Positions 1,835 through 49,812 of a stretch of 64,000 nucleotides of DNA are shown piece after piece. Source of the stretch: Candidatus Nomurabacteria bacterium (lineage in GTDB: Bacteria; Patescibacteriota; Patescibacteriia; HK-STAS-PATE-3). The stretch covers positions 768,001 to 832,000 of the forward strand of contig CP060223.1 of NCBI GenBank assembly GCA_023898465.1. Direction: 5' to 3'. The position numbers and the translations under genes are program-made. Numbering within the stretch: the stretch's first letter is position 1; each line of letters starts with the position of its first letter. The notes below the pieces were generated by a model that saw nothing but the letters and a program-made list of their open reading frames with translations, had not been told where the DNA came from and did no database searches.

Positions 1835-2554
1835 CTAGTACGCGTTTTCGCGATAATAATGATAGACTCGCGGCTGACGTCCAGGTAAGCTCACGTGCAG
1901 TATTTCATCAGCGTTATAGCTGCTCGCGTCAATCCGATCGCCTAACACCTGTGCCCACTCACCAACCCGAATTGGCACATCAGGCCGAATCAAGGTGTCG
2001 TTGGCATAGTAGATAACAAAGTCATTTCCATTTGGCGCTACCAGGAGAAAACCAGGGTCACTTACCTCGACAATTTTTCCTGATACCCAGCTATCGCCTG
2101 AGTAACGCTCATGCATTATCGGCTCTAGGAAGCGAATACCACGCGCTGAATCTGGCACGCCAGCTTGATCAAGTAAAACAGCAAAGAGCGTGACGCCGCC
2201 GACCATGCCAACCGCTACCCATAGAAAGGTGTGCTTGTAAGAAAACTCGTACTTGCGCATCAGCCAAATACCTAGAGTGATACCAACTACTGCGACGAAA
2301 ATTGGGATCCACGGCACGTTCTCGATAAATGGACCAATACCGCCGTGACCAAGGTAGCTCAAAGGCTGGTGCACGCGTAATCGATAGAGCACCACGCTGA
2401 AGAAGAAGAGCGTCAGCGCCATACTAGCCAATAATCCAACGCTCAGCGCTATACCACCTATGATGAAATAGGCCTTCGGGCGCATCTGGAGTTTTTGCTC
2501 CTTAATCTCCTGTGTAATTTGTTCAGCCAGTGACGGCTTGGGTTTCTCGTTCAT
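1835..2554 (-). CDS. putative membrane-anchored anti-sigma factor
   Basis: 239 aa with several TM helices, overlapping the 3' end of the ECF sigma gene by 32 nt (co-transcribed). Call is by position and topology only. Confidence 0.4.
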   Translation of the reverse strand: MNEKPKPSLAEQITQEIKEQKLQMRPKAYFIIGGIALSVGLLASMALTLFFFSVVLYRLRVHQPLSYLGHGGIGPFIENVPWIPIFVAVVGITLGIWLMRKYEFSYKHTFLWVAVGMVGGVTLFAVLLDQAGVPDSARGIRFLEPIMHERYSGDSWVSGKIVEVSDPGFLLVAPNGNDFVIYYANDTLIRPDVPIRVGEWAQVLGDRIDASSYNADEILHVSLPGRQPRVYHYYRENAY

Positions 2555-3095
2555 ACAAAGTTTTGAGTAACTTTTTACCCCGGTTAATACGCGTCCCCAC
2601 TGTCCCGATCGGAATGTGGAGCACGTCGCGAATTTCTTCGTATACTAAATCTTGAAAGTAGAAAAGGATGAGCGGCTCTCGATATTTAATATCCAACTTA
2701 TCGAGGCATCGCTCAAGCATGCGACGAATTTCTTTGCGCTCAAATTTTTCCTGGGCGCTCTCTTTGGTATCCGGCACCACATGCACTTCCGGCGTTTCAT
2801 CAATCGACACTTCTCGTTTGTGTTTTTTCAATTCATTCATGGCCTCATTATGCACGATGCGATATATCCAGCTAGAAAACTTTTTCTTCACTTGGAAACC
2901 TTGTAAGTTTACAAAGGCCTTGATAAAAGCCGATTGCAAAACGTCCTCCGCCCTATCCGGATCTTTCACCAGAGTGAGCGCATAACGTCGCAAGCGCTCT
3001 TCATATCGCTCTACTACAAAACGGTAGAGTTCTTGATCGCGTTCGCGAACCTGGACAACAAGCTCTTCATCGCTCAATTCGGCTGGGTCTGGCAT
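2523..3095 (-). CDS. ECF-family RNA polymerase sigma-70 factor
   Basis: Region 2 (FIKAFVNLQGF...FSSWIYRIVHNEAMN) and region 4 (YREPLILFYFQDLVYEEIRDVLHIPIGTVGTRINRGKKLLK) motifs; 190 aa. Confidence 0.8.
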   Translation of the reverse strand: MPDPAELSDEELVVQVRERDQELYRFVVERYEERLRRYALTLVKDPDRAEDVLQSAFIKAFVNLQGFQVKKKFSSWIYRIVHNEAMNELKKHKREVSIDETPEVHVVPDTKESAQEKFERKEIRRMLERCLDKLDIKYREPLILFYFQDLVYEEIRDVLHIPIGTVGTRINRGKKLLKTLYERETQAVTG

Positions 3096-3217
3096 ACGGT
3101 ATATATACTACACTAAAAGGCGATTTTTTATTTCAAAGCCTATTTGACACTCCAAAAAATGGGCAGTAGAGTGGACAAGCGATTCCACCACATCTAGCCG
3201 AAAGTAAGGAGGGCAAG

Positions 3218-3523
3218 ATGTCCTTGGTCGTTGTAACACATGATGGTAGCCTGCCATGCAACCGTGGAGGCACGGGTAGGCGTGTTGGCTACTTCTCGCC
3301 TGAATCGCGGATGTATTTCCCTCTGACCGGGGGCAGTGTCTACATCCCGATTCCTCCGCCACCGCCCAAACCTCCAAACTACTTCGAACTTCCGAGAACC
3401 ACCTGGCGTGACCGCTGCATCGAGTGTAATGGTCACACGAGCTGGAAGAGGAAGAAACTCGAAGGCGGCGTGCGTGAGGTCAAGGTCTGCGAAGAGTGTG
3501 GCAAGCTGATGCGTCCGTACTAG
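3218..3523 (+). CDS. small zinc-ribbon protein (CxxC-x17-CxxC), hypothetical
   Basis: GC-rich ORF preceded by an AAGGAGG Shine-Dalgarno; RCIECNGH...VCEECGK four-Cys ribbon; proline run PIPPPPPKPP. Confidence 0.4.
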   Translation: MSLVVVTHDGSLPCNRGGTGRRVGYFSPESRMYFPLTGGSVYIPIPPPPPKPPNYFELPRTTWRDRCIECNGHTSWKRKKLEGGVREVKVCEECGKLMRPY

Positions 3524-3535
3524 AGCGTCCGTGGA

Positions 3536-3567
3536 CCGCTTCTCAATCTGAGAGGCGGTCTTTTTTC
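3536..3567 (+). terminator. intrinsic terminator / REP-like hairpin (CCGCTTCTC..GAGAGGCGG + T-run)
   Basis: Stem CCGCUUCUC/GAGAGGCGG followed by UCUUUUUU, then TTGACA; near-identical to the unit at 4047-4087. Confidence 0.5.
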
Positions 3568-3643
3568 TTGACAGTGCAGCGTATTGTCGTTAAGGTGCTG
3601 GGTCGGAAACTGGACATTCACAAACGCAATGAAGGAGGGACTG

Positions 3644-4035
3644 TGTCATACGATCCAAACGCTTTTTTCCCGCCCTACATGAATTCGACCAACGAGGGTA
3701 ACCAGCATAGCGCCGGCATGCACGTGGTCGGGCTGCAGTTCTTCTTGGACGGCCTGATCATCGGCGGCAAGATCAACGCGCCACTCATCCCGATCACCGG
3801 AATGACTGACGAGGCCACGGCGAACGCGGTGAAAGCGCTCCAGCGCGAGCTCGGCATGAGCGACGTTGATGGCAACTTCGGCCAGGGTACCAGGGAAGCC
3901 CTGCTCCGTGCCACCAGCTTCAACTTCAACACGATCCCTGGATCGATCCGTACCATCCAGGGAATCTGGATCGACCCGGACGGAAATCTCAAGCCTTGGC
4001 CCCTGGCGTTCACCGACGATCTGCCCGGCGACTAG
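3644..4035 (+). CDS. peptidoglycan-binding (PG_binding_1) domain protein
   Basis: GAAGGAGGG then GTG at 3644 (ATG at 3679 is an alternative start). Motif TGMTDEATANAVKALQRELGMSDVDGNFGQGTREAL is typical of PG_binding_1. Confidence 0.5.
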
Positions 4036-4046
4036 GACCCACCCGC

Positions 4047-4084
4047 GCCGCCTCTTCTTTCACGGAGAGGCGGTCTTTTCTTTT
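4047..4084 (+). terminator. intrinsic terminator / REP-like hairpin, second copy
   Basis: CCGCCTCTTC...GAGAGGCGG followed by TCTTTTCTTTT; 21/24 nt identical to 3550-3573. Confidence 0.5.
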
Positions 4085-4110
4085 GACCTCGCAGCATCTT
4101 GGATGTATGT
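4082..4110 (+). promoter_or_regulatory. sigma70-like promoter upstream of the transposase (TTGACC-17-TATGTT)
   Basis: -35 TTGACC at 4082-4087, 17-nt spacer, -10 TATGTT at 4105-4110; the transposase start is about 37 nt downstream. Confidence 0.4.
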
Positions 4111-4146
4111 TACACACAGACAAAGGTGGCGCCTTAGGGTTACCTT

Positions 4147-4722
4147 TTGACCCAGCGCAGAATTTATCAAAACACATACCCATACCATCTCACCACGGTA
4201 ACGAAAAACCGACGGTGGGCATTTCGAGATGTGAAACTAGCATGGAAATTGCACCAGGCAATTCTTGGCGCGTGTTTTGTTAAAGGTTACACCGCGCTGG
4301 CATTTTGCATATTACCGGACCATATACATTTGTTGGTTTGGAAGCATATCCCAGCGCGGGTAGGAGAACCCACGCTGGGCCTGGATGAAATACAAACACA
4401 ATTATTATTCCCCGAAGCCCAGCGCGCGTTCTCTAACGTGCGCGATAACAACCATGATGACATTTCATACTTAATGAAATCAATAAAAGGCACCTTTGCT
4501 CGATCAATTTCCTCCGGCCCCATCTGGCAACCCAGCTTCAATTCCCGCATCGTCGACTCTGATCAACGCCTCTACAACACACTGCAGTATATTCAATATA
4601 ATTATCGTAAACATAAACTACCCGCACACTATGGCCAAGCACCATATACCTTTCTTAATATCCCAAAAAGCATTTACAACATTGACCAAAACCGGTTTTT
4701 CTCGTACGATGGCAGAGATTGA
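4147..4722 (+). CDS. IS200-like / REP-associated tyrosine transposase (HuH Y1 transposase, RAYT-like)
   Basis: HuH motif LPDHIHLLV; downstream Tyr-containing helix LQYIQYNYRKHKL resembles the YIxxNPxK helix of TnpA_IS200/RAYT; 191 aa, a typical size. Confidence 0.65.
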   Translation: MTQRRIYQNTYPYHLTTVTKNRRWAFRDVKLAWKLHQAILGACFVKGYTALAFCILPDHIHLLVWKHIPARVGEPTLGLDEIQTQLLFPEAQRAFSNVRDNNHDDISYLMKSIKGTFARSISSGPIWQPSFNSRIVDSDQRLYNTLQYIQYNYRKHKLPAHYGQAPYTFLNIPKSIYNIDQNRFFSYDGRD

Positions 4723-6305: not shown

Positions 6306-7640
6306 ATGGCACAACAAATCAACGTCACCATCATTGGCAGAACCAATGTTGGCAAGTCCCGTCTCTTTAATCGTCTCACAGAATCGCGAGGTGCTATTGT
6401 GGCACCTGAATCAGGCACTACTCGGGATATGAATGCGAAAGAAATCGAGTGGCGAGACACACGCTTCAATTTAATCGATACAGGTGGATGGACTATTAAC
6501 GAGGATGACGAAATTTCTACTGCAATACGCAAGCGAACTGAGCGAGCAGTCCGCGAAGCAAAGCTGCTGCTCTTTGTCGTTGATGGACGGGCTGACCTAA
6601 CACATGAGGATCTCCAATTTGCAGCCTGGATACGGAAACAGAAAAAACCTTGTCTGCTGGTAGTGAATAAGATCGAAAGCACACCGGCGGAACGACGCAT
6701 CCCAACCGAAATTCATCGCCTCGGACTTGGCTCTGCCTATGCAGTATCAGCTGCCAATGGACGCGGCAGCGGTGATCTGCTCGATGTTATTGTTGAGAAG
6801 CTAGGCGGCGCTAGTGCGCAAACAAAAGATCCAGGTTTAAGGATCGCCTTTATCGGGAGACCAAACGTTGGGAAATCCTCTCTCATGAACGCCATCCTGA
6901 ACGATGACCGCGTCTTAGTCAGTCCACAACCTTTTACTACCCGCGACGCTATTTCCGTTCCTTTCACCTGGAAAGAGAAAAAATTCACCCTGGTGGATAC
7001 TGCTGGATTACGTCGCCGCGTCCGCGTGCCACGCAAAAGTTTAGAAGCTGAAGGAGCTGATATCAGTCGCCAAACTATGCATGCTGTCGATGTATTGGTG
7101 CTCGTGCTCGACCTTAGTGAGCGTATTAGCGCCCAAGACCGTACGCTCATAGTTGAAGCGATGAAGGCTGTCCCAGCTATGGTCATCGCTGCAAATAAAT
7201 GGGACTTGGTGACTGAAAAAGACGCAACCACGCTCTTTACTATGGAAAAAGATATTCGCAGCCATCTCAGCTTTGTCCACTGGGCACCGATTGTATTTGT
7301 TTCTGCATTTGAAAAAACACGCGTAGCAAACCTGCTTGAAAAAGCCCAAAGCGCCTGGCACAACGCACAACGCAAACTTTCTGATAACGAATTAGAAGCG
7401 TTCCGAGATCAACTCATCCGCCGTCATCCCCCCACGAAAGGAAAGGGCGCTCGACGTCCACGCATCAGAGTAATTACGCAAATACGTACCGCTCCGCCAC
7501 ACTTTGATATCACCATAGGACCAAAGGAGGATTTACATCCTAACTATCTCGCTTTTGTTGAACGCATGCTTCGAGAACGCTATGATTTTGAAGGCAGCGC
7601 TATTCACCTCTCTATCCGTAAACCAAAGATTAACCGATGA
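6306..7640 (+). CDS. der: ribosome-biogenesis GTPase Der (EngA), two GTPase domains plus KH-like C-terminus
   Basis: IIGRTNVGKSRLFNRL...DTGG and IAFIGRPNVGKSSLMNAIL...DTAG; NKxD motifs; stop overlaps the pth start (ATGA). Confidence 0.9.
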   Translation: MAQQINVTIIGRTNVGKSRLFNRLTESRGAIVAPESGTTRDMNAKEIEWRDTRFNLIDTGGWTINEDDEISTAIRKRTERAVREAKLLLFVVDGRADLTHEDLQFAAWIRKQKKPCLLVVNKIESTPAERRIPTEIHRLGLGSAYAVSAANGRGSGDLLDVIVEKLGGASAQTKDPGLRIAFIGRPNVGKSSLMNAILNDDRVLVSPQPFTTRDAISVPFTWKEKKFTLVDTAGLRRRVRVPRKSLEAEGADISRQTMHAVDVLVLVLDLSERISAQDRTLIVEAMKAVPAMVIAANKWDLVTEKDATTLFTMEKDIRSHLSFVHWAPIVFVSAFEKTRVANLLEKAQSAWHNAQRKLSDNELEAFRDQLIRRHPPTKGKGARRPRIRVITQIRTAPPHFDITIGPKEDLHPNYLAFVERMLRERYDFEGSAIHLSIRKPKINR

Positions 7641-8167
7641 AATGCATTGTTGGACTAGGTAACCCTGGCACGAAATATGACGACACCCGCCATAACCTGG
7701 GCTTCGCACTGGTTGACGCAATTGTTGAGCACCTTGAGTTAGCGCCTTTTCAAGAGCAGAGTAAATTTAAAGCTGAGATGACCCGCAATGATGATCCTAT
7801 CCATCATTGGTTTTTCATGAAGCCACAAACCTACATGAATAACTCTGGTGAGGCAGTTGGTGAGTTTGTCCGATTCTATAAACTTCCGCTCAATGATTTA
7901 CTGGTTATTCACGATGATCTTGATTTACCTTTCGGTGAAATAAAGCATGTTGTTGATCGCGGACCGGCTGGACATAATGGAGTACAATCAATCATCGATG
8001 TTGTGGGCTCACAAGCTTTTCATCGTATCCGCATCGGCATTGGATCAAACAAGGAACTAGGCATTCCCTCTGAGGACTACGTTCTGCAAAAATTCAACAC
8101 TGAGGAAAAGCAAAAAATCTCCGAGCTACTCGAGCCTGTCCTCAACATCATTCTGAACTGGGCCTAA
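7637..8167 (+). CDS. pth: peptidyl-tRNA hydrolase
   Basis: MKCIVGLGNPGTKYDDTRHNLGF...YMNNSGEAV...HDDLDLPFG...GHNG. Confidence 0.9.
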   Translation: MKCIVGLGNPGTKYDDTRHNLGFALVDAIVEHLELAPFQEQSKFKAEMTRNDDPIHHWFFMKPQTYMNNSGEAVGEFVRFYKLPLNDLLVIHDDLDLPFGEIKHVVDRGPAGHNGVQSIIDVVGSQAFHRIRIGIGSNKELGIPSEDYVLQKFNTEEKQKISELLEPVLNIILNWA

Positions 8168-8195: not shown

Positions 8196-8223
8196 CGAGT
8201 GCGGGGCTTCACACTCTTTTTTG
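8196..8223 (+). terminator. intrinsic terminator after pth
   Basis: GAGTG-CGGGGCTTCA-CACTC followed by TTTTTT. Confidence 0.5.
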
Positions 8224-8351
8224 TAGTACTTACCAACACTGGCGTTGCAGGTCCGGAGGGTCGTCCGGACAGAGAAGGACATCGGCCGCGCTTGGCGAGA
8301 AGGAAGCGAGCTTCAATGCGAGTCTCACTCAAGCAACGACCGACGTCCATG

Positions 8352-8868: not shown

Positions 8869-8956
8869 GCTAGAGCGTGGCGGAAAGGCGAAGGACTTTC
8901 ACCAACTCACTGATCAAGACCAGCGTGTCCTCGGGGACGCCTTTCCAGAACAGATG

Positions 8957-9028
8957 AGGCGGGTCAAGGATTTGAACCTCGGAATCGCGGATTTGAAGAC
9001 CGCTGCCTTACCACTTGGCTAACCCGCC
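8957..9028 (-). tRNA. tRNA with apparent UCA anticodon (Trp-like anticodon arm; would decode UGA/UGG)
   Basis: Acceptor GGCGGGT/ACCCGCC, anticodon arm GCGGU-CUUCAAA-UCCGC (compare canonical Trp CCGGU-CUCCAAA-ACCGG), T-arm CGAGGTTCAAATCCTTG. Genes in the window use TGA as a stop, so the anticodon assignment needs tRNAscan-SE. Confidence 0.5.
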
Positions 9029-9050
9029 TTTCAACCTATAAGTTAGAGAG

Positions 9051-9124
9051 GCGCCCTGGAAGGAATTGAACCTCCGACATCTGGGTCCATAGCCCAGCGC
9101 TCTTCCGACTGAGCTACAGGGCAC
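9051..9124 (-). tRNA. tRNA-His-like (G-1:C73 present) with an AUG rather than GUG anticodon triplet
   Basis: 8-bp acceptor including G-1 paired to C73 (a His identity element), D-arm GCTCAGTCGGAAGAGC, anticodon arm CUGGG-CUAUGGA-CCCAG, T-loop GGTTCAATTCC. A34 is unusual and may be a variant or sequence error. Confidence 0.5.
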
Positions 9125-9386: not shown

Positions 9387-9427
9387 AAAAAAAGAGCTGT
9401 CCGATGGTACCCCGGAAAATTACTTAT

Positions 9428-9464
9428 GTCAAGAAACCCCGCCTCATCATTTGACAAGGCGGGG
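9428..9464 (-). terminator. intrinsic terminator after the TonB-like gene
   Basis: Minus strand: CCCCGCCTTGTCAAATGATGAGGCGGGG followed by TTTCTT. Confidence 0.5.
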
Positions 9465-9470
9465 TAACTA

Positions 9471-10118
9471 TCAATTCAGCGAGAAACGGAAGGGAATGAC
9501 TGTCCAGACGGCCACCGCCCTATCACGCTGCTTCGCCGGACTAAAGAGCCACTGGAGTGCCGCAGCACATGCTGACTGATTCATCGACTCGAGCACCTCA
9601 CTCTGCACCACACTCGCTGCATCAACCGCACCGGTCTCGGTAATATGCACGCGCACCATCACCAAACCTTCCGCACCAGCCTGACGAGCCAAGTCAGGAT
9701 AGACCGGAGCTACCCGATGAATGACCTGTGGCGCTGTATCATAGGCCACAAAAGTCTCGGGTATTCCACTGTCCTGTCCGCTCATCACAATTGGCGGAGC
9801 AAAGGGATCGTAGGTCGTAGGAGCCAGCGTTTCTTCCAGACTGGCCATCTCGCTGATCTCAGCCTCAGCCGGCAAGTCAGGTCGCTGCACTTCTTGCGGC
9901 GGAGGTGGAACCACGAAGTCCTCCATGAACTCCACCGCGGTCATCACGCGCTCATGCAACTGATAAGGATGCGGGACATAGGGCGGCGAAAACCTGGCGA
10001 GCAAGAACAAGAGGGCAGTTGCTACCAGAAAACTCCAGCCTATGTCACGCCAGTAGTGCTGCTTCAGTAGGTAATGCTCTGAGGCACGGAAGCTTTCCAA
10101 TCCGATCACAAAGCACAC
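9471..10118 (-). CDS. TonB-family protein (N-terminal TM, Pro-rich linker, TonB C-terminal domain)
   Basis: TM WSFLVATALLFLLARF; linker PPPPQEVQRPDLP; C-terminus VYPDLARQAGAEGLVMVRVHITETGAV...SEVLESMNQSACAAALQWLFSPA matches the TonB_C fold pattern. Confidence 0.6.
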   Translation of the reverse strand: MCFVIGLESFRASEHYLLKQHYWRDIGWSFLVATALLFLLARFSPPYVPHPYQLHERVMTAVEFMEDFVVPPPPQEVQRPDLPAEAEISEMASLEETLAPTTYDPFAPPIVMSGQDSGIPETFVAYDTAPQVIHRVAPVYPDLARQAGAEGLVMVRVHITETGAVDAASVVQSEVLESMNQSACAAALQWLFSPAKQRDRAVAVWTVIPFRFSLN

Positions 10119-10441
10119 TCCTTCTCAACCCCGGGAGGTGTATGTAGCTGCAAAGAACTGACCAGAGCTAGGGAGGCTGATGCACAGCTGCCATGCATCC
10201 GATACAGTTATCTCTAGTGTACCCTATTCGGGAATAAAGAAAAAACTCGGCCACACAGCGTCGCCGGCAAGTGGAAAGCAATAGCTGATAAACAGTACTA
10301 CCTTCACTTGAAGCTACTTGGTTTGCATAGGAGGGGTCGCATTCCGTTCGCAACTTACCGACGACGCCATACTGCCGAGCATAGCGAAGCCACTTTCACT
10401 ACCATGAACGTAACGGGAAAAAATAGCATGCATTTCCCACT

Positions 10442-18983: not shown

Positions 18984-20477
18984 ATGAAAAGGAGCACAAA
19001 GAACCTGCGTAAAGTTGATGATGGCTCAGTCAACACCTGGTCGGCTGATGATTTTGTACGTGCTATCCAAGCCTATGATGCCCAGGCTGATGTTGATATT
19101 GTCCGCCTGGCGTATGAATATGCTGAACAAGCCCACCAGGGACAAATGCGAAAAAACGGTGAGCCGCATTTCACTCACTGCATTGCCACGGCCGCTCGAC
19201 TAACTCACCTCCACCTCGACCCCATCACCATCTCGGCAGCTTTACTGCACGATGTGGTAGAGGATACTCCAATAACGGAAGAACAGCTGAAAAAGGATTT
19301 TGGCGCGGAAATTACCAAGCTGGTGATGAGCGTCACAAAATTAGGTAAGATCAAATATCGCGGCATGGAGCGCTATGTAGAAAATATCCGCCGCATGTTT
19401 GTAGCCATGGCTGAAGACGTTCGGGTGATTCTGATTAAGCTCTCAGATCGTATCCATAACCTCAGTACGCTCTCAGCTCTACCTCGGGAGAAACAACTCC
19501 GCATTGCCACTGAGTCGCTGGAAATTTATGCAGCCATTGCCAACCGTCTAGGTATAGGTGAGTTTCGTGGTCAGATTGAAGATTTGGCTTTTCGCTATGT
19601 TCACCCGGATGAGTATATTCGTATCGAAGCACTCTTTCGCGAACACTATCCTCATGCAGAAAAATTTCTGCTCAGCGCCCAACATACCATAGCGAAGGAA
19701 TTCGCTGATGCTGGCATAGTAATCGTGTCCTGCCACGGCCGTAAGAAACACCTCTACAGTCTTTGGAAGAAATTACAGCGACCAGAGCTAAACGGTGATA
19801 TTCATCAAATTAATGATTTAATTGCCCTCCGCATTATCGTTAAAGACGTGCCGAGTTGCTACATGGCGCTGGGAAAAATTCATGAACTTTGGAAACCGAT
19901 TAAAGGTAAGATCAAAGACTACATTGCTCAGCCCAAACCAAACGGTTACCAATCACTACATACCACAGTTTTTGGACCGCATGGCAGGATTATTGAAATA
20001 CAAATTCGCGATACAGTGATGCACGAATTTGCCGAATATGGTATTGCTGCGCATTGGCATTATAGCGAATCAGGTAAACCAAAGGGTGTTTCACAAGTAC
20101 CGAAACGCATGACCAATTGGATGCAAGCACTCACGCAATGGAAAAAAGAGTTTGCCAAAGACCAGGAGTATTTGGAAAGTCTAAAAGTTGACGTGTTTAA
20201 AAATCAAATCTACGTCTTTACACCCGAGGGTGACGTAGTTGAGTTACCTGAAGATGCGACACCGGTTGATTTTGCCTACCGGGTTCATACTGATGTGGGA
20301 AATCAATGCTCGGGAGCAAGAGTGAATGAAAAAATCGTGGCTTTGGATACCCCACTTCGCAGTGGTGATGTTGTGGAGATACTAAAGGAAAAAAAACGAA
20401 AACGCCCGAACCGAGACTGGTTAGACTTTGTGAAAACGCACAGCGCTAAAGAACAGATCCGAAAGGCAACCCGGTAG
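18984..20477 (+). CDS. rel: short bifunctional (p)ppGpp synthetase/hydrolase (Rel/SpoT homologue: HD + synthetase + TGS, no C-terminal regulatory domains)
   Basis: HD motif HDVVEDT; synthetase region RIKDYIAQPKPNGYQSLHTTV; TGS VFTPEGDVVELPEDATPVDFAY; 497 aa versus about 740 for canonical Rel. Confidence 0.8.
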   Translation: MKRSTKNLRKVDDGSVNTWSADDFVRAIQAYDAQADVDIVRLAYEYAEQAHQGQMRKNGEPHFTHCIATAARLTHLHLDPITISAALLHDVVEDTPITEEQLKKDFGAEITKLVMSVTKLGKIKYRGMERYVENIRRMFVAMAEDVRVILIKLSDRIHNLSTLSALPREKQLRIATESLEIYAAIANRLGIGEFRGQIEDLAFRYVHPDEYIRIEALFREHYPHAEKFLLSAQHTIAKEFADAGIVIVSCHGRKKHLYSLWKKLQRPELNGDIHQINDLIALRIIVKDVPSCYMALGKIHELWKPIKGKIKDYIAQPKPNGYQSLHTTVFGPHGRIIEIQIRDTVMHEFAEYGIAAHWHYSESGKPKGVSQVPKRMTNWMQALTQWKKEFAKDQEYLESLKVDVFKNQIYVFTPEGDVVELPEDATPVDFAYRVHTDVGNQCSGARVNEKIVALDTPLRSGDVVEILKEKKRKRPNRDWLDFVKTHSAKEQIRKATR

Positions 20478-27260: not shown

Positions 27261-27794
27261 TTAACTTTCCCCAATTTCGCTTTTTCCTAACCAAGCGTCA
27301 ATCGTCCACTTCCATGATTTACGCCATACAAGGAAAATAGACAATACAATCAAACCTAAATCCTTTAAGAGCGCTTCAGTCGGTGTCGCTCCGATCGAGA
27401 AAGTACCAAAGCAACCACAATCGATGTCTGTGTTCCCTCGAGCAATATTAATACTAATGGCAATGATAAAGCTCAAGAGCATAAGCGTGAGCGCTCCAGC
27501 CGCCCATCGACGCCAAAATCCAGCCAACACAAAGAGACCGCCCAATAACTCAATCCACGGCGTCACCAATGCGAATATACTTACCATACCCTCGGGAAGT
27601 AATTCGTAGGTGCGAATCGCTGCCTCAAATTCCTCCACTGGCGCCATGAGCTTCCCAAGCGCGGCGTAAACAAAGATTCCACCGACCAGCAAGCGAGCAA
27701 GCCATTCTAAGGCAATCAGCCAGCGCTTAGTTGTTGGCATTGACCTCGGATTGGTCAGTCGATGCAGTAGCGTCCGCTTCGGCAATTGCGGCAT
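27261..27794 (-). CDS. MauE/DoxX-family membrane protein (CGC motif), candidate redox partner of the adjacent DsbA-like proteins
   Basis: Four TM helices and the characteristic NTDIDCGCFG motif; overlaps and is co-oriented with the first DsbA-like gene. Confidence 0.6.
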   Translation of the reverse strand: MPQLPKRTLLHRLTNPRSMPTTKRWLIALEWLARLLVGGIFVYAALGKLMAPVEEFEAAIRTYELLPEGMVSIFALVTPWIELLGGLFVLAGFWRRWAAGALTLMLLSFIIAISINIARGNTDIDCGCFGTFSIGATPTEALLKDLGLIVLSIFLVWRKSWKWTIDAWLGKSEIGES

Positions 27795-28527
27795 CGATCA
27801 CGGACTTCCAATTATCAGTGGTCATACCACCGACACGTCGCTCTCCATTGATGAAGAAGGTAGGAGTAGAATTTACCTTACGAGCATTACCTTCCCCAAT
27901 ATCAGTATTTACCGCTTCTTTTTGCTCGGTATTATCTATACAGCTTTGAAAAGCTTCGGAATCAATCCCAAGGTCAGAAGCGTACTGCACAAAAGTGTCA
28001 GTAACGGTGGAGCCGCTTAATACTGACCAGCTCGCTTGCTCCTCAAAAAGTTTATCGTGATACTCCCAGAACTTACCTTGCGCGAATGCACATTGTGCCG
28101 CCTCTGCAGCTGCTCGTGCATTTTTGTGAATGGTAGTTAAGGGATAATCATTGTACACAAAGCGCACATCATTTGGATATGCCGCCAACACTTCAGGGAG
28201 ATTTGTATCTGCTGCCTTACAGGCTGGACACTGGAAATCTGAGTACTCTTCAATTAAGACCTTTGCGGTTTCAGGACCTCGGCTTGGGTCGTTATCGTTT
28301 GAGAAATCACCTGCTGTACTTGTATTGTCACTACCCTGGAAAGCCCAAATACCTCCTCCAACAACCACTACAAGAATGATGACAGTCCAAATAAGCTTTT
28401 TCATACGGGCTGACTGGGCACCTTTTTCTCGGTTTGCCATTTTTTCTTGGCGTCGTAATTCTCGTCGCTGTTTTTTGGTTAGCTGCTGTTCTGTATTATC
28501 GTTCATAGCTTTGTAGAAAAGTATCAA
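27727..28527 (-). CDS. DsbA/BdbD-like thioredoxin-fold protein (CPAC active site), membrane-anchored
   Basis: N-terminal TM; SDFQCPACKAADTNL...FVYNDYPLTTIH...AQCAFAQGKFWEYHDKLF. Confidence 0.75.
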   Translation of the reverse strand: MILFYKAMNDNTEQQLTKKQRRELRRQEKMANREKGAQSARMKKLIWTVIILVVVVGGGIWAFQGSDNTSTAGDFSNDNDPSRGPETAKVLIEEYSDFQCPACKAADTNLPEVLAAYPNDVRFVYNDYPLTTIHKNARAAAEAAQCAFAQGKFWEYHDKLFEEQASWSVLSGSTVTDTFVQYASDLGIDSEAFQSCIDNTEQKEAVNTDIGEGNARKVNSTPTFFINGERRVGGMTTDNWKSVIDAAIAEADATASTDQSEVNANN

Positions 28528-29170
28528 GTAGTCCTAAATCCCAGGTTAAAGTTTGCTCGCTTTGTCCGGGGATGGCAATAGTCAATTGTAAGGTTTTTGG
28601 ATTCACTTTATCGATATCCAATCCTTCTTCACTTGTCCGGGCAAAGGCTACTAAGCCAATACGTTGATTGACTTCAGAGGCTGGCAAGAGCACTGAGTTA
28701 GCCTCTGACCACTGCTGCACGGGATATACATTACCCTCATCATCACTTAAGCTAACAATTTCCTCAGGATCAAATTCAGAAAGTTCATCATCTGAACTAG
28801 CTAAGGTGAGGTAGAAGACGATTGTATCAGTATTTGGCTTCAGGATGGCTAAACGATCAGCAACTTCACCCTGATGCCCTGATTTGGTGGGAAGCGCCTC
28901 TAATGCACTAGCCAGCTCTGGGAAAAAATAGCTCGCTTCTACCAATATCTTTGCATTCGTATCACCACTCCGCCAGCCAGCATCAAAGTAATCAGTAAAG
29001 ACGCCTTCGGGGGAAGTATCGCTTGAGGTATTACTAAGGAGTGTAGTGTCGCTAATAGAACTCGATCCATGCGGCCAACTTAGCCACACTCCGAAGATAA
29101 TTACCACAATACCAAAAGCCCAGAACCACACGGGCAAACTGGGCTTTGGTGTAACTTTCTTACGTGGCAT
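28496..29170 (-). CDS. secreted/membrane-anchored hypothetical protein within the Dsb cluster
   Basis: N-terminal TM/signal WFWAFGIVVIIFGVWL; acidic; no motif recognised. Confidence 0.4.
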   Translation of the reverse strand: MPRKKVTPKPSLPVWFWAFGIVVIIFGVWLSWPHGSSSISDTTLLSNTSSDTSPEGVFTDYFDAGWRSGDTNAKILVEASYFFPELASALEALPTKSGHQGEVADRLAILKPNTDTIVFYLTLASSDDELSEFDPEEIVSLSDDEGNVYPVQQWSEANSVLLPASEVNQRIGLVAFARTSEEGLDIDKVNPKTLQLTIAIPGQSEQTLTWDLGLLDTFLQSYER

Positions 29171-29184
29171 GCTGCCGAATCGTT

Positions 29185-29967
29185 CTAGAGTAACTGGTCA
29201 ATAACTGATTTGAAGCTGGCGTACGGAAGTGCGCCGCTAATCAATTGACCAGTAGTGACATCGTCACCCTGTAAGACAAAGGTGGCCGGAGTACCAGACA
29301 CACCAGCGAGTTCTCCTTCACTCATATCAGCCTGTACATCATCATCATACTTCTTGCTCTGGTAGCAATCATTAAACTTATCAACGTTTAGTCCGAGATC
29401 GCTCGCTACCTGACTGTAATAGGAGTCGCTCATTGAAGACTGCGTTGCGAATATCTTATCGCCAAACTCCCAAAACTTATCTTGCTCAGCAGCACATTCA
29501 GAAGCATTTGCCGCTGGTAGCGCTTGAGGGTGAATCGAAGTGAGTGGGAAATGTCGATACACTAGAGAAACAGTGTCAGGATTCTCATCAATAATTCGCT
29601 GCAAGGTTGGGTGAAGGTTGCTGCAGTATGGGCACTGGAAATCAGAGAACTCTACCAGTACTACTTTTGCTTTAGAAGGGTCAGCGCCAAGGTAATGATC
29701 ATCCTTGGTTGGCTTGCTAATAGCCGATGCGTTGCCGGTCGGGGCTGCAGCTGCAGAGGTGTTTGTATTTGCTGCGGCCACTGTATCGGTTCCCTTTACT
29801 GTTGCAGTTGAAGCGCCACCGCCAAACATAATAAAGCCCAGCGCAGTAAGTGCTACGCCAACAAAAAGACCCAACATAAATGTGGTCTTGGGAGGTGCAT
29901 CGAGGATGCCGGCTGGACGTGAGCCTTCACCCGATGGCACGTTACGAACTACTGGAGATGGTGTCAT
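29185..29967 (-). CDS. DsbA/BdbD-like thioredoxin-fold protein (CPYC active site), paralogue 2
   Basis: SDFQCPYCSNLHPTL...VYRHFPLTSIHPQAL...ECAAEQDKFWEFGDKIF. Confidence 0.75.
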   Translation of the reverse strand: MTPSPVVRNVPSGEGSRPAGILDAPPKTTFMLGLFVGVALTALGFIMFGGGASTATVKGTDTVAAANTNTSAAAAPTGNASAISKPTKDDHYLGADPSKAKVVLVEFSDFQCPYCSNLHPTLQRIIDENPDTVSLVYRHFPLTSIHPQALPAANASECAAEQDKFWEFGDKIFATQSSMSDSYYSQVASDLGLNVDKFNDCYQSKKYDDDVQADMSEGELAGVSGTPATFVLQGDDVTTGQLISGALPYASFKSVIDQLL

Positions 29968-30043
29968 GTGCTCGAGAATTTAAGAAAAAAATGAAATGCC
30001 TAAGTGATGGATAGTATACGAATTTTGAGCCCGTATTGTCAAT

Positions 30044-30772
30044 TTACTCTAACAACCCTTCTATCAACTGCTGAAAAGTGGCAAAAGGTAGGGCCCCTTC
30101 AATTTTTCTTCCGTTTACAAAAAACGTAGGCGTGCCACGAACCCCTAAATCCAAGCCGTCGGAAAAATCGTCCAAAATTTCATTCTCATATTTGCCACTA
30201 GTTATACAACTCGTAAACTCATCTTCTTTCACTCCGGCTAATCTAGCCCAAGCCAGGATATTTTCCTGCGTCATTTCGTCTTGTCCAATAAACATACGAT
30301 CATGGAGCGACCAATATTGATTTGAGCCTTGTTCCCAAGCACACTGCCCTGCTTCAGCCGCAAATAACGCGAGTGGATGAGCCTCAGTAACTGGGTAATC
30401 ACGAAAGACAAAACGAATTTGCCCACTGTAGGTATTCATAAGCTGACGTACGGTTGGAAACACCTCCTTACAATAGGGGCATTGGTAATCTCCAAACTCA
30501 ACAATAGTTACTGCAGCATCAGCAGGACCGAGTGATGGATCATTTTCACCGACCAGTTGAGCATCGAGATTGCTATTTGTGTTTACTCCCTGATTTTGCT
30601 GGGTATTAAACGTAAAACTACTGGTATCGCTAGTGATAACCTTTTGCAAGGAATGAATAGTAAGCCCGACGTATCCGCCACTCAAAATAATGAAAAGCGC
30701 GCCAAGACCAAGTACCCATGGTTTCATATACCAAGGGCGACTTTTTTGTACATACGATGGCACGTCTTGCAT
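30044..30772 (-). CDS. DsbA/BdbD-like thioredoxin-fold protein (CPYC active site), paralogue 3
   Basis: GDYQCPYCKEVFPTV...FVFRDYPVTEAHPLAL...QCAWEQGSNQYWSLHDRMF. Confidence 0.75.
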   Translation of the reverse strand: MQDVPSYVQKSRPWYMKPWVLGLGALFIILSGGYVGLTIHSLQKVITSDTSSFTFNTQQNQGVNTNSNLDAQLVGENDPSLGPADAAVTIVEFGDYQCPYCKEVFPTVRQLMNTYSGQIRFVFRDYPVTEAHPLALFAAEAGQCAWEQGSNQYWSLHDRMFIGQDEMTQENILAWARLAGVKEDEFTSCITSGKYENEILDDFSDGLDLGVRGTPTFFVNGRKIEGALPFATFQQLIEGLLE

Positions 30773-37726: not shown

Positions 37727-38137
37727 TTATGAGCTTACCTGAGTATGGAGTAACTTATCAAGTCGCATTTTGCTGAGCTTAGATTCCATTGCTTCTCGCA
37801 CCTGCACCCAAATATCATGCGTGGTACAAAAGTCCTGCCGAGGGCAACCCTGTGCGCTCCGTTCACAAGCCAGCACATCTAATTCATGCACCGCATGCAG
37901 TATTTCACCTACGTTAATTTCCTTGGGTGAACGGGTCAGACGATAGCCTCCCTGACTACCTCGGCTGCTCTCTACTAAACCAGCCTGACGTAAATATACC
38001 ATTAACTGTTCAGCATAGGTGTAAGGCACTCGCTCCTGCTCTGCGAGATTGCGCAAAGAAAGACTGGCTTGACCGTGCTGCCTGGCCAGACCGAGCATGA
38101 GAGCTAAGCCATAGTCACCTTTAGTAGAAAACTTCAT
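37727..38137 (-). CDS. Rrf2-family transcriptional regulator (IscR/SufR-like) heading the suf operon
   Basis: wHTH MKFSTKGDYGLALMLGLAR...LVESSRGSQGGYRL; cluster-ligand Cys in CERSAQGCPRQDFC. Confidence 0.8.
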   Translation of the reverse strand: MKFSTKGDYGLALMLGLARQHGQASLSLRNLAEQERVPYTYAEQLMVYLRQAGLVESSRGSQGGYRLTRSPKEINVGEILHAVHELDVLACERSAQGCPRQDFCTTHDIWVQVREAMESKLSKMRLDKLLHTQVSS

Positions 38138-38266
38138 ATCTGAGTAAAATACTAAGATATAAAAACTCGCCTGTCAACGTCTACTTTGACAAGCAGTGCC
38201 TGCAAAATCTATGCTACCCCCATACTCGTTCTTTCACACCCGTTCCCATGCAGGAAAGGAATACTC

Positions 38267-38911
38267 ATGGACGCTCTGATGACCAGCCTTGTGCAGGCAC
38301 CAATTCGCAAGAGTCGGCCGACCTGCGCTCGACGTCGATCTCACCGCTTCCAGCAACTACGTCATGGAACCCGACTTCGCCCTCTGGCAATCGCGCTCAA
38401 CCAACTCAACATCAGACCTTTCGTCAAGGCTGATGTGGAGAGATACAAGCGTGCACGTCGCGCTGAGTGCGAACCAACGCTTCGTCGAGATGCGCGCTTC
38501 AGGCGCTTCTTCCACATCAGCGCTAAGGTCGCCGCGATATTCGTGATAGTGTCTGCCATCTACTTGGCGGTACCTGGTCCGGCTCAATTCGCGGCGACTT
38601 GCTCGCTACTTGTTTCGTCGGTCTACCTGACTGCAAACCTCATCCTCGGCTGTCGCCTGCAGTTGCGAACTTACGTCCGCTGGCAGACCTGGAAAATCGA
38701 AACAGAGTGGTGCGCTTACCCAGGCGTACTTCCCGATCCTGTACAGCTACAGATCGCCAGGATCAAGGAGGTAGCACCGGGCGCTCGCTTCGAGGTCGAA
38801 GACCTCCGTTACAATACCGGACGGGTCTATGACCCACTCCTGTACGCGTGTCTGGATGAGGAACGCTTCTGCGTAGCAACTTGGCTAGGCAAGGAATGCC
38901 GAATCGCCTAA
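38267..38911 (+). CDS. hypothetical membrane protein (basic N-terminus, two TM helices, about 75-aa C-terminal domain), GC-rich island
   Basis: AGGAAAGG Shine-Dalgarno then ATG at 38267; about 59% GC versus about 48% backbone; no motif recognised. Confidence 0.45.
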   Translation: MDALMTSLVQAPIRKSRPTCARRRSHRFQQLRHGTRLRPLAIALNQLNIRPFVKADVERYKRARRAECEPTLRRDARFRRFFHISAKVAAIFVIVSAIYLAVPGPAQFAATCSLLVSSVYLTANLILGCRLQLRTYVRWQTWKIETEWCAYPGVLPDPVQLQIARIKEVAPGARFEVEDLRYNTGRVYDPLLYACLDEERFCVATWLGKECRIA

Positions 38912-39237
38912 GGCCACATTCGAGACCAGCTTCTCTCTTGAAGCTGGTCTTTCCTTATATGCTTGACAGTTTTTCTAGACCGTGCTAACTTATCCCGTTG
39001 TTCGTGACCGCATATGTAGTCCCGGACAACGTCAACCACTGGAAATCGGCGCATCATCGCGCCACGTCACAACGAATGGGAGGTATTCCCTCGATGCTGA
39101 CAAAACTCAAGCGTTGCCCGCGTAGGTATGCGAGCCTGGGTCGCCGGTCCCAGTAGCCCTCTCTCGCACGAGAGGAATCCAACTCGTCCTGCGCCGGGGC
39201 CTTCCACCGGCAATTACACCGTCGAAACGGACGAACC

Positions 39238-39276
39238 CCGGAGCCCGAAGACATCTGTCTGAGGGCTCCTTTTTCC
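39238..39276 (+). terminator. intrinsic terminator (GGAGCCC...GGGCTCC + TTTTT)
   Basis: Perfect 7-bp GC stem then T5, immediately upstream of a consensus promoter. Confidence 0.5.
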
Positions 39277-39277
39277 A

Positions 39278-39306
39278 TTGACACAAAGCGTATCGTCTGC
39301 TATATT
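39278..39306 (+). promoter_or_regulatory. near-consensus sigma70 promoter (TTGACA-17-TATATT) driving the three-paralogue operon
   Basis: TTGACA at 39278-39283, 17-nt spacer, TATATT at 39301-39306; first ORF starts at 39345 after GGAGGATGA. Confidence 0.55.
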
Positions 39307-39344
39307 CCCCGGTCTCACGCACCTGCACAATCAACGGAGGATGA

Positions 39345-39614
39345 ATGCGGAACGAAGACGCTGATGCAATGCACTTCCACTGGGGGATCACGAACTGCGT
39401 TGTCATCGACGTAGAAGAAAGGCCTAGAGCAAGTGCGGTACGCACTTTTGCTCAGGACAACCAAGCTACTTGTTCAGAGGGAAATGAAGTCCTGGTGCGA
39501 TGCACCTGCACTGAAATTCGACCTCAGCTACTTAGTGTGAGGAGGCTCCAGTCCTTTCTCACCGAACATCGTTCTGGTCATCCAATAAACTCGCCCAAAG
39601 AGGAGGGGGAATGA
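39345..39614 (+). CDS. small acidic Cys/His-motif protein, paralogue 1 of a tandem triplet (unknown family)
   Basis: 89 aa; shares NCVVI...VLVxCxC...FLxxHxxGHP with the two following ORFs; 4-nt overlap with the next ORF. Confidence 0.5.
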   Translation: MRNEDADAMHFHWGITNCVVIDVEERPRASAVRTFAQDNQATCSEGNEVLVRCTCTEIRPQLLSVRRLQSFLTEHRSGHPINSPKEEGE

Positions 39615-39889
39615 AAGCAGTCAACGCTGGTGAACACGGCAACGAGCACGTCCGGGTCTGCGTTGTCATCGAAGGAGATGAGAACCGAGATATTCTGGAA
39701 ATCTACGCTTTCGCTCGCGAGGTTCAGGCCATCGAGCCTGACGAGCCGCAAGACGAGGCTAGCGATGGAGAACGCGTCTTGATTTGTTGCGAATGTCCGG
39801 GCGGAGACAGACCTCGCTTCGCTGACCATGACCAACTGATCGCCTTTCTCCGCGATCACAACTCAGGCCACCACGCTTCGGTGGAATAG
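39611..39889 (+). CDS. small acidic Cys/His-motif protein, paralogue 2
   Basis: 92 aa; VCVVIEGDE...AFAREV...VLICCECPG...FLRDHNSGHH. Confidence 0.5.
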   Translation: MKAVNAGEHGNEHVRVCVVIEGDENRDILEIYAFAREVQAIEPDEPQDEASDGERVLICCECPGGDRPRFADHDQLIAFLRDHNSGHHASVE

Positions 39890-39904
39890 CCGGAAGGAGA
39901 CTAC

Positions 39905-40177
39905 ATGCATACCGTAGCCGCTACGGCACCATCGAAGCAAGTCAAGAACTGCGTCGTAATCCAGCTAGGAGAGCATCCCTCTCTAGAGACGCTCCTTGCC
40001 TTCGCGGCAGAGCATGCGGCCGTCAGAGTTGACGAGCAACCCGACGAACTCAACGACGGTGATCAGGTCCTGGTCACCTGCAATTGTCGGGACGGCTCAG
40101 GGCAGCAAATGCTCCTCACCGTGCCGGAGATTGAGCAGTTTCTCGAAAGTCACGCCTTGGGGCATCCCTCGGGGTAA
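39905..40177 (+). CDS. small acidic Cys/His-motif protein, paralogue 3
   Basis: 90 aa; NCVVIQLGE...AFAAEH...VLVTCNCRDG...FLESHALGHP. Confidence 0.5.
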   Translation: MHTVAATAPSKQVKNCVVIQLGEHPSLETLLAFAAEHAAVRVDEQPDELNDGDQVLVTCNCRDGSGQQMLLTVPEIEQFLESHALGHPSG

Positions 40178-40273
40178 ACTATGCACCTTCACCTAGAACC
40201 AGCTGACTCCGGTCTCCTGGTTCTTTCTTTTTCTGTCACTCTGGACTTGTTCCGAAGTCTCCTAAACTCAAAA

Positions 40274-41110: not shown

Positions 41111-41225
41111 AGGTATATTGTAGCACGTACTTAGGGTATAGTCTTGACATTTCTATAAAAATCGCTAAGGTCAGACTGCTTTTGGAGCATTGACATCAAC
41201 CGCTAGAACAGAGGAGGAGGAGTAG

Positions 41226-41468
41226 ATGACGCTCGCAGCTACTGAACTTAGGCCTGGGATGACGGTGCGGAATCTGCGGAGCGGTCTCACCGCTACGGTC
41301 ACCGAACCGCTGAGGGTCACGGGCGATCCGCTGCACGTACACGTCAGGAGGACGATGGAGGGAGGCGAGAGCAACGGTAAGACCAAGTTGACCACCTGGA
41401 GTCTCGACAACGTCGAGATCGTGCCGGTGGCTCAGGAGCCTGTCGACAACGATCGGCAGGTCGGCTAG
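41226..41468 (+). CDS. small GC-rich hypothetical protein with its own strong RBS and terminator
   Basis: GGAGGAGGAG Shine-Dalgarno 5 nt before ATG; 80 aa; about 62% GC. Confidence 0.4.
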   Translation: MTLAATELRPGMTVRNLRSGLTATVTEPLRVTGDPLHVHVRRTMEGGESNGKTKLTTWSLDNVEIVPVAQEPVDNDRQVG

Positions 41469-41477
41469 CCCTTCGCG

Positions 41478-49563: not shown

Positions 49564-49593
49564 TACAAGTTCAGGACAAGACGAGCGGTGATA

Positions 49594-49803: not shown

Positions 49804-49812
49804 CTCACCTCC

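Follow-up and report, generated by a model that had tools for sequence, protein, structure and literature searches.

The stretch of DNA considered here, called the window, covers 64 kb of the 1.08-Mb genome of a Patescibacteria metagenome-assembled genome (MAG) labelled 'Candidatus Nomurabacteria bacterium'. Bacteria of the candidate phyla radiation (CPR) have tiny genomes, and their gene gain and exchange are poorly known. The backbone of the window holds housekeeping genes for an extracytoplasmic function (ECF) sigma/anti-sigma pair, LCP (cell-wall assembly), Der, Pth, Mfd, Nramp, DprA (366 aa, about 15.2-16.4 kb), TopA, RelA/SpoT, ParAB, three DsbA-like proteins, the Suf system, UvrA, TruB, TrmD, S16, SMC and a cell-wall amidase. 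Eleven tRNA genes are present, as is a 16S rRNA gene (50559-52042, minus strand) that has no 23S link and whose 3' end retains CCUCC. Set into this backbone are seven GC-rich islets of ~6.5 kb in total. About a tenth of the window thereby consists of miniature self-contained expression units that differ from the housekeeping genes in both signals and composition. Integrases, phage genes and defence systems were not detected in the window, apart from a Y1 transposase gene resembling REP-associated tyrosine transposases (RAYT; REP, repetitive extragenic palindrome) and an Mrr-like nuclease gene, and no tyrosine recombinase is among its annotated genes.

Islet 1 (3176-4175, plus strand) carries two small open reading frames (ORFs). 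ORF1 (3218-3523) encodes a basic, Pro-rich protein of 101 aa with a CxxC...CxxC zinc ribbon; its GC is 0.569 and its third-position GC (GC3) 0.65. The -10 box of its promoter (3144-3172, TTGACA-17-TAGAGT) ends 45 nt before the ATG, hence a leadered mRNA, and a Shine-Dalgarno (SD) sequence, AAGGAGG, occupies 3207-3213. Terminator T1 follows at 3533-3561 (13-bp stem, -21.6 kcal/mol, then T6), and directly 3' of it lies the ORF2 promoter (TTGACA 3568-3573, TAAGGT 3591-3596). ORF2 (3643-4035, 130 aa, GC3 0.81) has a GTG start and the SD GAAGGAGGG at 3631-3639. Its product lacks a signal peptide and matches the peptidoglycan (PG)-binding domain PF01471, PG_binding_1, at E = 1e-6. The zinc-ribbon and PG-binding proteins that the initial annotation had read at 3190-4130 are thus both present. 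ORF2 is followed by terminator T2 (4047-4074, 11-bp stem, -20.4 kcal/mol) and then by the promoter (4083-4111) of the RAYT-like Y1 (HUH) transposase gene (4147-4722, plus strand), which has backbone GC and is itself followed by LCP. The Y1 protein matches PF01797 at E = 3.8e-10 and contains an HUH-like 'HIH' motif; its best NCBIfam match is the REP-associated tyrosine transposase NF047646, at 64 bits against a cut-off of 80.

T2 and its surroundings form the second copy of a 51-nt terminator-promoter module, present as a direct repeat at 3536-3586 and 4051-4101 (75% identical, with GAGAGGCGGTCTTTT exact in both). This repeat flanks ORF2, to which the RAYT-like gene lies adjacent. The hairpin occurs twice in the 64 kb, both times upstream of Y1 and in direct orientation; one weak match with three mismatches is expected by chance. 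No further copy was seen elsewhere in the 32 loci examined. A repeat search returned only this module and three paralogous genes (39345-40177), and a repeat family common to all islets was rejected as an explanation since none exists in the window.

With an islet threshold of 56% GC, a scan in sliding 300-nt windows delimits segments at 3176-4175, 9426-10150, 38226-39425, 39576-40250, 41151-41600, 49551-50200, 52426-53075 and 59126-59825. The same threshold is reached within the 16S gene and the tRNA array and at 976-1300. GC-rich segments were thus found at every site named in the initial annotation, together with one extra at 9426-10150, which holds a gene with a TonB_C domain. The 57-60% GC given there was slightly high: the segments measure 55-57%, although single genes reach 62%, in a window of 48.6% GC (300-nt windows: mean 0.486, standard deviation 0.039).

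That the islets are compositionally distinct, as had also been claimed, was borne out by setting 13 islet ORFs against 47 backbone genes. The islets have a GC3 of 0.65 and the backbone one of 0.455 +/- 0.05 (Mann-Whitney p = 4e-8). Codon shares shift accordingly for TTA (0.01 in islets versus 0.19 in the backbone), ATT (0.21 versus 0.56) and AAA (0.25 versus 0.54), and the rare codon AGG rises from 0.03 in the backbone to 0.16. Codon usage indistinguishable from that of the backbone, which the initial annotation had named as a refutation, is thus not what the islets show. Once normalised for GC, the dinucleotide signatures set islets and backbone 99.5 apart, whereas size-matched backbone draws average 34 and peak at 92.6 (0/500 reached the islet value). 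The difference extends to the proteins: the Arg/Lys ratio is 3.26 in the islets and 1.02 in the backbone, Arg equals or exceeds Lys in all 13 islet proteins, and Gly, Ala, Arg and Pro (GARP) residues account for 0.30 versus 0.25. Intergenic GC (0.49 inside islets, 0.46 in the backbone) comes from too little sequence to use. Genes beside or between the islets that encode the Mrr-like nuclease, the RAYT-like protein and a pilin-like protein have backbone composition. Since the Mrr-like and RAYT-like genes do so, accessory status alone does not define the islets, which are discrete units. Translational selection for C-ending codons was considered and rejected, because S16, the sole ribosomal protein gene in the window, has a GC3 of 0.47; it is also contradicted by the rise of AGG and by a GC3 of 0.38 in the ORF1 orthologue of a relative (L013, see below).

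The islets differ from the backbone in their expression signals as well. An SD:anti-SD duplex of -6 kcal/mol or better precedes 11 of the 13 islet genes but only 5 of the 47 backbone genes (p = 1e-4). In islet genes with a recognisable full promoter, the -10 box ends 38-46 nt ahead of the start codon. In contrast, it ends 8-12 nt ahead of the start in the backbone genes 37727-38137, 41527-42312 and LCP, and many backbone genes have a TAnnnT -10-like box 4-12 nt upstream of the start codon. Because these boxes sit so near the start codons, we infer that the backbone is largely leaderless. Examples of this pattern among the housekeeping genes, most of which lack an SD, are 2523-3095, 18984-20477, 37727-38137, 40274-41110, 41527-42312, 48865-49563 and 53990-54664. 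Islet and backbone promoters are of the same TTGACA type. Promoter and terminator calls are consensus matches and predicted folds. All 11 terminator candidates in or bounding islets have folding energies of -16 to -32.5 kcal/mol (z -4.3 to -8.6) followed by U tracts, and the four strongest terminator-like hairpins of the window all lie in islets; two of the 11 belong to a structured transcript (38966-39275) and to a doubtful ORF, both described below.

The strong SD sites, mostly missing from the backbone, and the stable intrinsic terminator at the end of every unit are therefore as the initial annotation described them. Their use as a mark of foreign origin did not stand, since the relatives show the same format: in every one of them small strong-SD genes lie between SD-less housekeeping genes, at local GC. 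To judge from these sequences, an SD and a terminator are a class feature of small, fast-evolving accessory genes family-wide and in themselves no mark of foreignness. The lack of an SD in most housekeeping genes of the window, together with the -10-like boxes close to many start codons, suggests that leaderless mRNAs are widespread in this Patescibacteria family; a literature search found no paper describing this.

The remaining islets are built along similar lines. At 9436-10118 (minus strand), a TonB-like gene with a GC of 0.565 and a terminator (-25.8 kcal/mol) adjoins tRNA-Asp; it encodes a transmembrane (TM) anchor, a Pro-rich linker and the TonB_C domain. The region around 38-41.5 kb, all on the plus strand, holds four units. 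That at 38186-38951 encodes a 214-aa Arg-rich protein with two TM segments (promoter 38186-38215, ORF 38267-38911, terminator 38922-38951, -20.6 kcal/mol). The structured transcript at 38966-39275 consists of a promoter and ~290 nt with a 20-aa Arg-rich ORF only, and its terminator (39240-39269) directly precedes the best promoter of the region. This RNA folds far better than shuffled sequences (z = -5.4), with the SD of the 20-aa ORF paired within a hairpin, and has no Rfam match at E <= 1. The transcript (38966-39285) may be a structured small RNA or the attenuator leader of the operon that follows. This operon (39278-40224; promoter 39278-39306) encodes three paralogues (39345-39614, 39611-39889 and 39905-40177) and ends in a terminator. 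The paralogues are acidic proteins of 89-92 aa with a CxC motif and ~34% mutual identity, all with a strong SD. The single-gene unit at 41143-41521 has TTGACA motifs upstream, the SD AGGAGGAGGAG, an 80-aa ORF (41226-41468, GC 0.62, GC3 0.78) and a terminator of -28.6 kcal/mol.

Two islets sandwich the 16S gene, as had been noted, with gaps of 343 and 431 nt. On its 3' side, the minus-strand unit 49545-50259 has a promoter (TTGACA 50259-50254, TACCTT 50236-50231), lies 343 nt from the 16S 3' end, and encodes membrane proteins of 125 aa (49813-50190) and 69 aa (49594-49803); hydrophobic helices in both agree with the earlier call of two small membrane proteins here. Its terminator (49589-49545) has a 19-bp stem of -32.5 kcal/mol. 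On the other side, the plus-strand unit 52463-53262 has the SD GAGGGGGAG, an ORF at 52474-53211 (GC 0.572) and a terminator near 53233-53262. Its product is acidic (isoelectric point 5.0), as first described, although 245 and not 246 aa long. The last islet fills the gap between the convergent SMC and amidase genes. Here a 124-aa helical Arg-rich protein is encoded at 59137-59545 (plus strand; TTG start, SD TAAGGAG, terminator 59517-59545 of -20 kcal/mol), and a doubtful 72-aa ORF without an SD lies at 59562-59832 (minus strand), with a convergent hairpin at 59586-59562.

Three of the seven islets adjoin tRNA or rRNA genes. Four of the 13 islet proteins are membrane-anchored, the TonB-like one among them, and one has a peptidoglycan-binding domain; the rest are small, acidic or Arg-rich, and lack known domains. 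Across three genera, ORF1 is found linked to LCP, a cell-wall gene. A role of the islet proteins in the cell envelope or in host contact is a reasonable guess. Structure predictions were of low confidence (predicted local distance difference test 43.8 for the 245-aa protein and 35.7 for ORF2), too poor for a fold search, and a PDB sequence search with ORF2 gave nothing significant.

The islets are not an artefact of one assembly. Exact-protein look-up identified eleven independent contig stretches from six samples (SRR12358675, with one 50.5-kb contig, SRR23493594, SRR14234116, ERZ28655839, ERZ27309206 and ERZ27309092) that are collinear with the window at 99.4-100% across islet junctions. The junctions crossed are both of islet 1, those of the TonB_C islet and those of the 49.6-kb islet up to 16S. 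In one of these stretches (L003, ERZ28655839), all six single-nucleotide differences and the one indel fall at window positions 3951-4047, within the last 100 nt of ORF2/T2, the other 1000 nt being free of differences. This variable stretch is near a contig end, and the differences may reflect strain variation, recombination at a cassette boundary or contig-end error.

The closest relatives were found through LCP and SMC homologues and then through the contigs encoding them. They are related at the level of a family (LCP 54-58%, SMC 59-64% and 16S 89.7% identical to the window), and all homologues of the window LCP and SMC, beyond the identical proteins of the MAG itself, are Patescibacteria. 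A Der scan of genome contigs and an LCP scan of metagenomes each returned a distant locus only (L006, 56%, and L012, 43%, respectively). GC is 44.5% in GCA_043800725.1 (loci L013 and L017) and 55-58% in L006, L015, L018/L024 and L021. The L006 MAG shares LCP-Der-Pth synteny with the window, its Der being 56% identical. Its label, 'uncultured Gammaproteobacteria bacterium', is probably mis-assigned; the closest organism-labelled homologues of its LCP are Patescibacteria.

Two islet units have orthologues at the same positions in these relatives. In L013, the ORF1 orthologue (6483-6821; 36% identity) keeps the Cys pairs and has a strong SD. It comes after the same ECF sigma gene as in the window (61% identity) and before one hairpin module (6855-6890), to which module copy 1 of the window is homologous, and the Y1 gene (6952-7488, 52% identity). 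In L024, an uncalled ORF1 orthologue (7829-8140) with an SD and a terminator lies immediately upstream of LCP and beside tRNA-Val. The GC3 of ORF1 is 0.38 in L013 and 0.62 in L024 (host-like), compared with 0.65 in the window, where the backbone has 0.455. An orthologue of the 245-aa gene (61% identity, GC 0.64) is found in L018, divergent from a 16S gene of 89.7% identity, and the 16S leader and the SD region of the 245-aa gene can be aligned between L018 and the window. The position of the islet 5' of 16S is therefore ancestral. With 61% identity, the 245-aa protein matches SMC, LCP and Der (58-64%) in conservation. For these two islets, the conserved position across distant relatives that the initial annotation had named as a refutation of its reading is thus observed.

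At least three of the islets are truly variable, as the foreign-origin proposal implied. ORF2 is missing from the ORF1-Y1 junction of L013, where one module stands instead of the two of the window, so that this locus looks like the window minus one promoter-SD-ORF2-terminator unit. L013 lacks the TonB_C gene between its tRNA array and Mfd, as does L024 downstream of Pth. The SMC/amidase gap, with its two small genes in the window, has contents that are unrelated across the four genomes compared: L017 has a 217-aa gene there, L019 a 523-aa FG-GAP protein and L021 four small genes. The one non-self homologue of ORF2, P0002 (39% identity), is on L022, a 2.5-kb contig from the Joint Genome Institute (JGI). 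Here a backbone of 47-50% GC gives way to two cassettes of 63% and 60% GC, the latter that of P0002, each of which runs from a TTGACA promoter through a strong SD and an ORF to a terminator. The L022 terminators at 1578-1616 and 2150-2188 are near-identical (ACTCACAAACGCG...CGCGGGTGTGAGTTCTTTTTT) and bound a GC-rich cassette; the adjacent cassette encodes an extremely acidic 125-aa protein. A layout of terminator, promoter, SD, ORF and terminator, twin hairpins included, is thus seen in a second genome. The GC excess, the signature shift and the Arg-richness are specific to the window genome and L022.

The same comparisons bear on the genes next to islet 1. The Y1 gene is single-copy and syntenic across genera, with a homologous hairpin upstream in both, and looks domesticated, unlike a mobile insertion sequence (IS). 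The LCP promoter (4682-4710, TTGACCAAAAC...TTTTCTCGTACGAT), which in the window falls within the 3' end of the Y1 gene, is almost identical in L024 (~8211-8239), where the LCP protein is only 58% identical.

Exact-protein look-ups of the islet proteins returned the same genome only, with no second genomic context. A homology search with ORF2 among 5.8 billion proteins yielded itself and P0002, and a HMMER search with the 245-aa protein among 1.84 billion representatives yielded six proteins including the query, in about five clusters. The homologues of both carry no organism labels; where the context was readable, it was that of a CPR relative. Pfam, PHROGs, NCBIfam and PADLOC recognised only the PG_binding_1 and TonB_C domains among the islet proteins. 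The initial annotation had proposed a high-GC donor such as a host or partner organism or a phage, and, as a check, searching high-GC Actinobacteria and phage databases with the islet proteins. In PHROGs (10 of the 13 islet proteins), there were two weak endolysin-type matches, both to the PG-binding domain of ORF2, and no structural or replication hits; scans of viral contigs (IMG/VR) and tblastn against phages (INPHARED) with islet queries gave no match. No phage, host or Actinobacteria-like homologue thus came to light. Genomic islands of Patescibacteria can reach 13% of the genome, and transfers occur mostly between Patescibacteria (PMC12455944). The restriction of islet homologues to the family fits such transfer as far as the recovered sequences go.

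We put the probability at about one half that the islets are self-standing leadered cassettes from a flexible gene pool restricted to the family, and that recombination with higher-GC relatives brought them in or replaced resident copies. On this reading the exchange is of the known within-family kind (small islets passed among Patescibacteria) rather than capture from a host or phage. Each unit comprises a consensus sigma-70 promoter, a 5' untranslated region of ~30-45 nt with a strong SD and up to three small ORFs, closed by an intrinsic terminator that often abuts the next promoter. Before import into the window genome, the units would recently have resided in a relative of higher GC within the family (55-58% GC); ORF1 and the 245-aa gene would have displaced the alleles already present. 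Recombination anchors may have been provided by the two ends of the 16S gene, by the tRNA array and by the terminator-promoter hairpin module, which is conserved; ORF2 would have entered by recombination at the module, which is now duplicated around it. Import from high-GC relatives is suggested because the GC excess, signature shift and Arg-richness are peculiar to the window genome and L022, and a donor within the family is plausible because most of its sampled members have 55-58% GC, matching the islets. The presence of DprA is consistent with DNA uptake. Three features stand out: leadered cassettes in an apparently leaderless backbone, a duplicated module around one cassette, and positional orthologues with foreign composition.

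Several observations weigh against import from relatives. No donor has been identified, and none was found outside the family. The dinucleotide distance of the islets to the sampled high-GC relatives is 132-172, larger than the 99.5 to their own backbone, so these relatives are not themselves the donors. Within GC-ending or AT-ending codon classes, the islets correlate with the relatives no better than with the backbone; the overall codon-usage correlation with high-GC relatives (0.58-0.73) was discarded as a donor clue, being accounted for by GC3 alone. ORF1 is 36% identical to both its low-GC and its high-GC orthologue, i.e. equally distant. For the ORF1 and 245-aa units, positional orthology would make vertical descent the simpler fit. 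The window has no integrase or phage gene. The comparative data cover the ORF1, ORF2, TonB_C, 245-aa and SMC/amidase loci, the islets at 38-40 kb, 41.2 kb and 49.6 kb being outside them.

The main rival of import is that the islet genes are native and vertically inherited, their GC excess stemming from a local process such as GC-biased gene conversion or slower AT drift. In the latter case they would be 'GC fossils': the backbone would have drifted down from a family ancestor of ~57% GC while rarely transcribed leadered units lagged. The conserved positions of ORF1 and the 245-aa gene, the housekeeping-like conservation of the latter, the backbone type of the islet promoters, the confinement of homologues to the family and an islet GC (55-57%) equal to the commonest GC of the family all speak for it. 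However, the same class of genes has local GC3 and no excess in the relatives, the difference reaches the GC-normalised signature and the amino-acid make-up, and the neighbouring Mrr-like, RAYT-like and pilin-like genes are backbone-like. ORF2 and the TonB_C gene are lacking at the same junctions in relatives, and we know of no precedent for a GC3 gap of 0.2 between adjacent bacterial genes by mutation bias alone. We regard native origin as possible but doubtful. Assembly chimerism, with GC-rich pieces of another organism stitched into the contig, was also raised initially and would explain the compositional contrast, but that contrast is all that speaks for it. It is refuted for the three islets whose junctions are crossed by the eleven stretches from six samples, and relatives have both ORF1 and the 245-aa gene in matching positions; overall, we consider it next to impossible.

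Repeated capture from an unrelated high-GC donor, be it a host or partner such as an actinobacterium or a phage delivering moron-like genes, would account for the foreign composition, the promoter-ORF-terminator layout of each unit, a TonB_C domain typical of Gram-negative bacteria, the weak endolysin likeness of the ORF2 domain and the adjacency of three islets to tRNA or rRNA genes. It is nevertheless improbable. The very large protein searches with ORF2 and the 245-aa protein yielded almost nothing, the homologue contexts that could be read lay in CPR relatives, and the phage resources (PHROGs, for 10 of the 13 proteins, IMG/VR and INPHARED) offered nothing beyond the PG-binding match. Moreover, phage, integrase and defence genes are lacking from the window, and two islets are positional orthologues in relatives. 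We give less credence still to mobility specific to the hairpin, in which the terminator hairpin is the recognition site of the RAYT-like Y1 enzyme and hairpin-bounded units moved as single-stranded DNA. Its outcome, an integron-like array devoid of an integron integrase, is just as questionable. The Y1/HUH gene and its upstream hairpin are syntenic and conserved between genera, the module is duplicated exactly around ORF2, L013 resembles a precise 'empty site', the ORF2 homologue of L022 also lies between twin hairpins, and the best NCBIfam match of Y1 is a REP-associated transposase. Against this, the Y1 score is below the curated cut-off (64 versus 80 bits) and only two direct hairpin copies exist in 64 kb, on one side of Y1, and none in the other loci examined. 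In addition, the other islets carry unrelated hairpins, hairpins with U tracts look like ordinary terminators, and no Y1 gene is visible on the 2.5-kb L022 contig.

A broader and rather unlikely reading can be formulated. The family would have two gene classes with different translation starts, leaderless housekeeping genes and SD-led mini-cassettes, the latter forming a shared exchangeable pool that passes among genomes differing widely in GC and recombines at conserved hairpin terminator-promoter junctions and RNA genes, possibly aided by Y1, i.e. an integron-like economy without an integrase. Should the two-class layout and intra-family exchange hold genome-wide, they would offer a sequence-based way to pick out flexible genes, probably for the envelope or host interaction. 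GC-based calls of 'foreign genes' would need caution, since positional orthologues get flagged, and there would be a natural system in which to ask whether leaderless and SD-dependent translation serve different regulatory tiers.

Some other features of the window deserve mention. A tRNA with a UCA anticodon, labelled 'SeC' by ARAGORN, sits in the tRNA array of two genera (window 8956-9028, minus strand, 73 nt; L024 11767-11854, minus strand, 88 nt) and amounts to a suppressor-like tRNA in a standard-code genome. TGA is the stop codon of 19 of the 65 window ORFs, and long genes are intact under code 11. The predicted tRNA-His (9050-9123, minus strand) has the anticodon ATG, with A at position 34, which is unusual for a bacterial tRNA-His. 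Past the 3' end of the 16S gene in L018 (329-1819), the remaining 328 nt cannot be aligned to the window flank and are too short to judge the presence of 23S. At 62671-63489 (minus strand), a gene with a strong SD (TAGGAGG) and backbone GC encodes a protein of 272 aa whose Por_Secre_tail domain, for type IX secretion sorting, is unexpected in a CPR bacterium. Three DsbA-like thioredoxin paralogues occupy ~3 kb at 27727-30772 (minus strand), with a MauE/DoxX gene just before them and a gene without a Pfam match (28496-29170) lying among them; the direct repeat D4 (28220 versus 29624) reflects their paralogy.

Several known systems resemble the islets in part. Phage morons are reportedly autonomous promoter-gene-terminator units of deviant GC lying between phage genes. 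The window units likewise have their own promoter and terminator, a small gene and deviant GC, and lie between conserved genes. However, housekeeping genes flank them (ECF sigma, LCP, Der, Mfd, Suf, UvrA, 16S, TrmD, SMC), with no phage genes nearby. Integron arrays and clusters of attC sites lacking integron integrases (CALINs) also consist of small ORFs in the same orientation, split by a repeated hairpin and unlike the host in composition, and their hairpins are homogeneous within a genome and different between genomes, as is the case for the window and L022. Unlike integron cassettes, those of the window have their own promoters, and their hairpins are canonical terminators with U tracts, followed by TTGACA promoters. 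At most two or three units stand in a row, and the window has no gene for an IntI-type integrase; the R' and R'' cores of attC were not searched for.

As in the REP/RAYT and IS200/IS605 systems, the window has a single-copy syntenic Y1/HUH gene after a conserved GC-rich hairpin; IS200 carries a terminator-like hairpin upstream of tnpA. The window hairpin is not dispersed as REP elements are, having two copies in 64 kb, on one side of the gene only, and the protein falls below the RAYT cut-off. In naturally transformable bacteria, homology-facilitated illegitimate recombination occurs, and rRNA and tRNA genes act as recombination anchors. The islets adjoin the most conserved sequences available (16S on both sides, the tRNA array and the hairpin module), and a DprA gene is present. 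For the window this likeness is purely inferential, with no breakpoints or donor identified; the 16S gene is a possible recombination anchor.

The genomic islands described in Patescibacteria (PMC12455944) share with the islets an atypical composition (~10% of the window in the present case), CPR-confined homologues and, in some units, adjacency to tRNA or rRNA genes and variability among relatives. In contrast to those islands, the window units span a mere 0.4-2 kb with one to three genes each, carry no mobility genes and are complete transcription units. Two of them are positional orthologues of genes in relatives, which would point to allele replacement, or to a cause other than transfer, rather than to new insertion.

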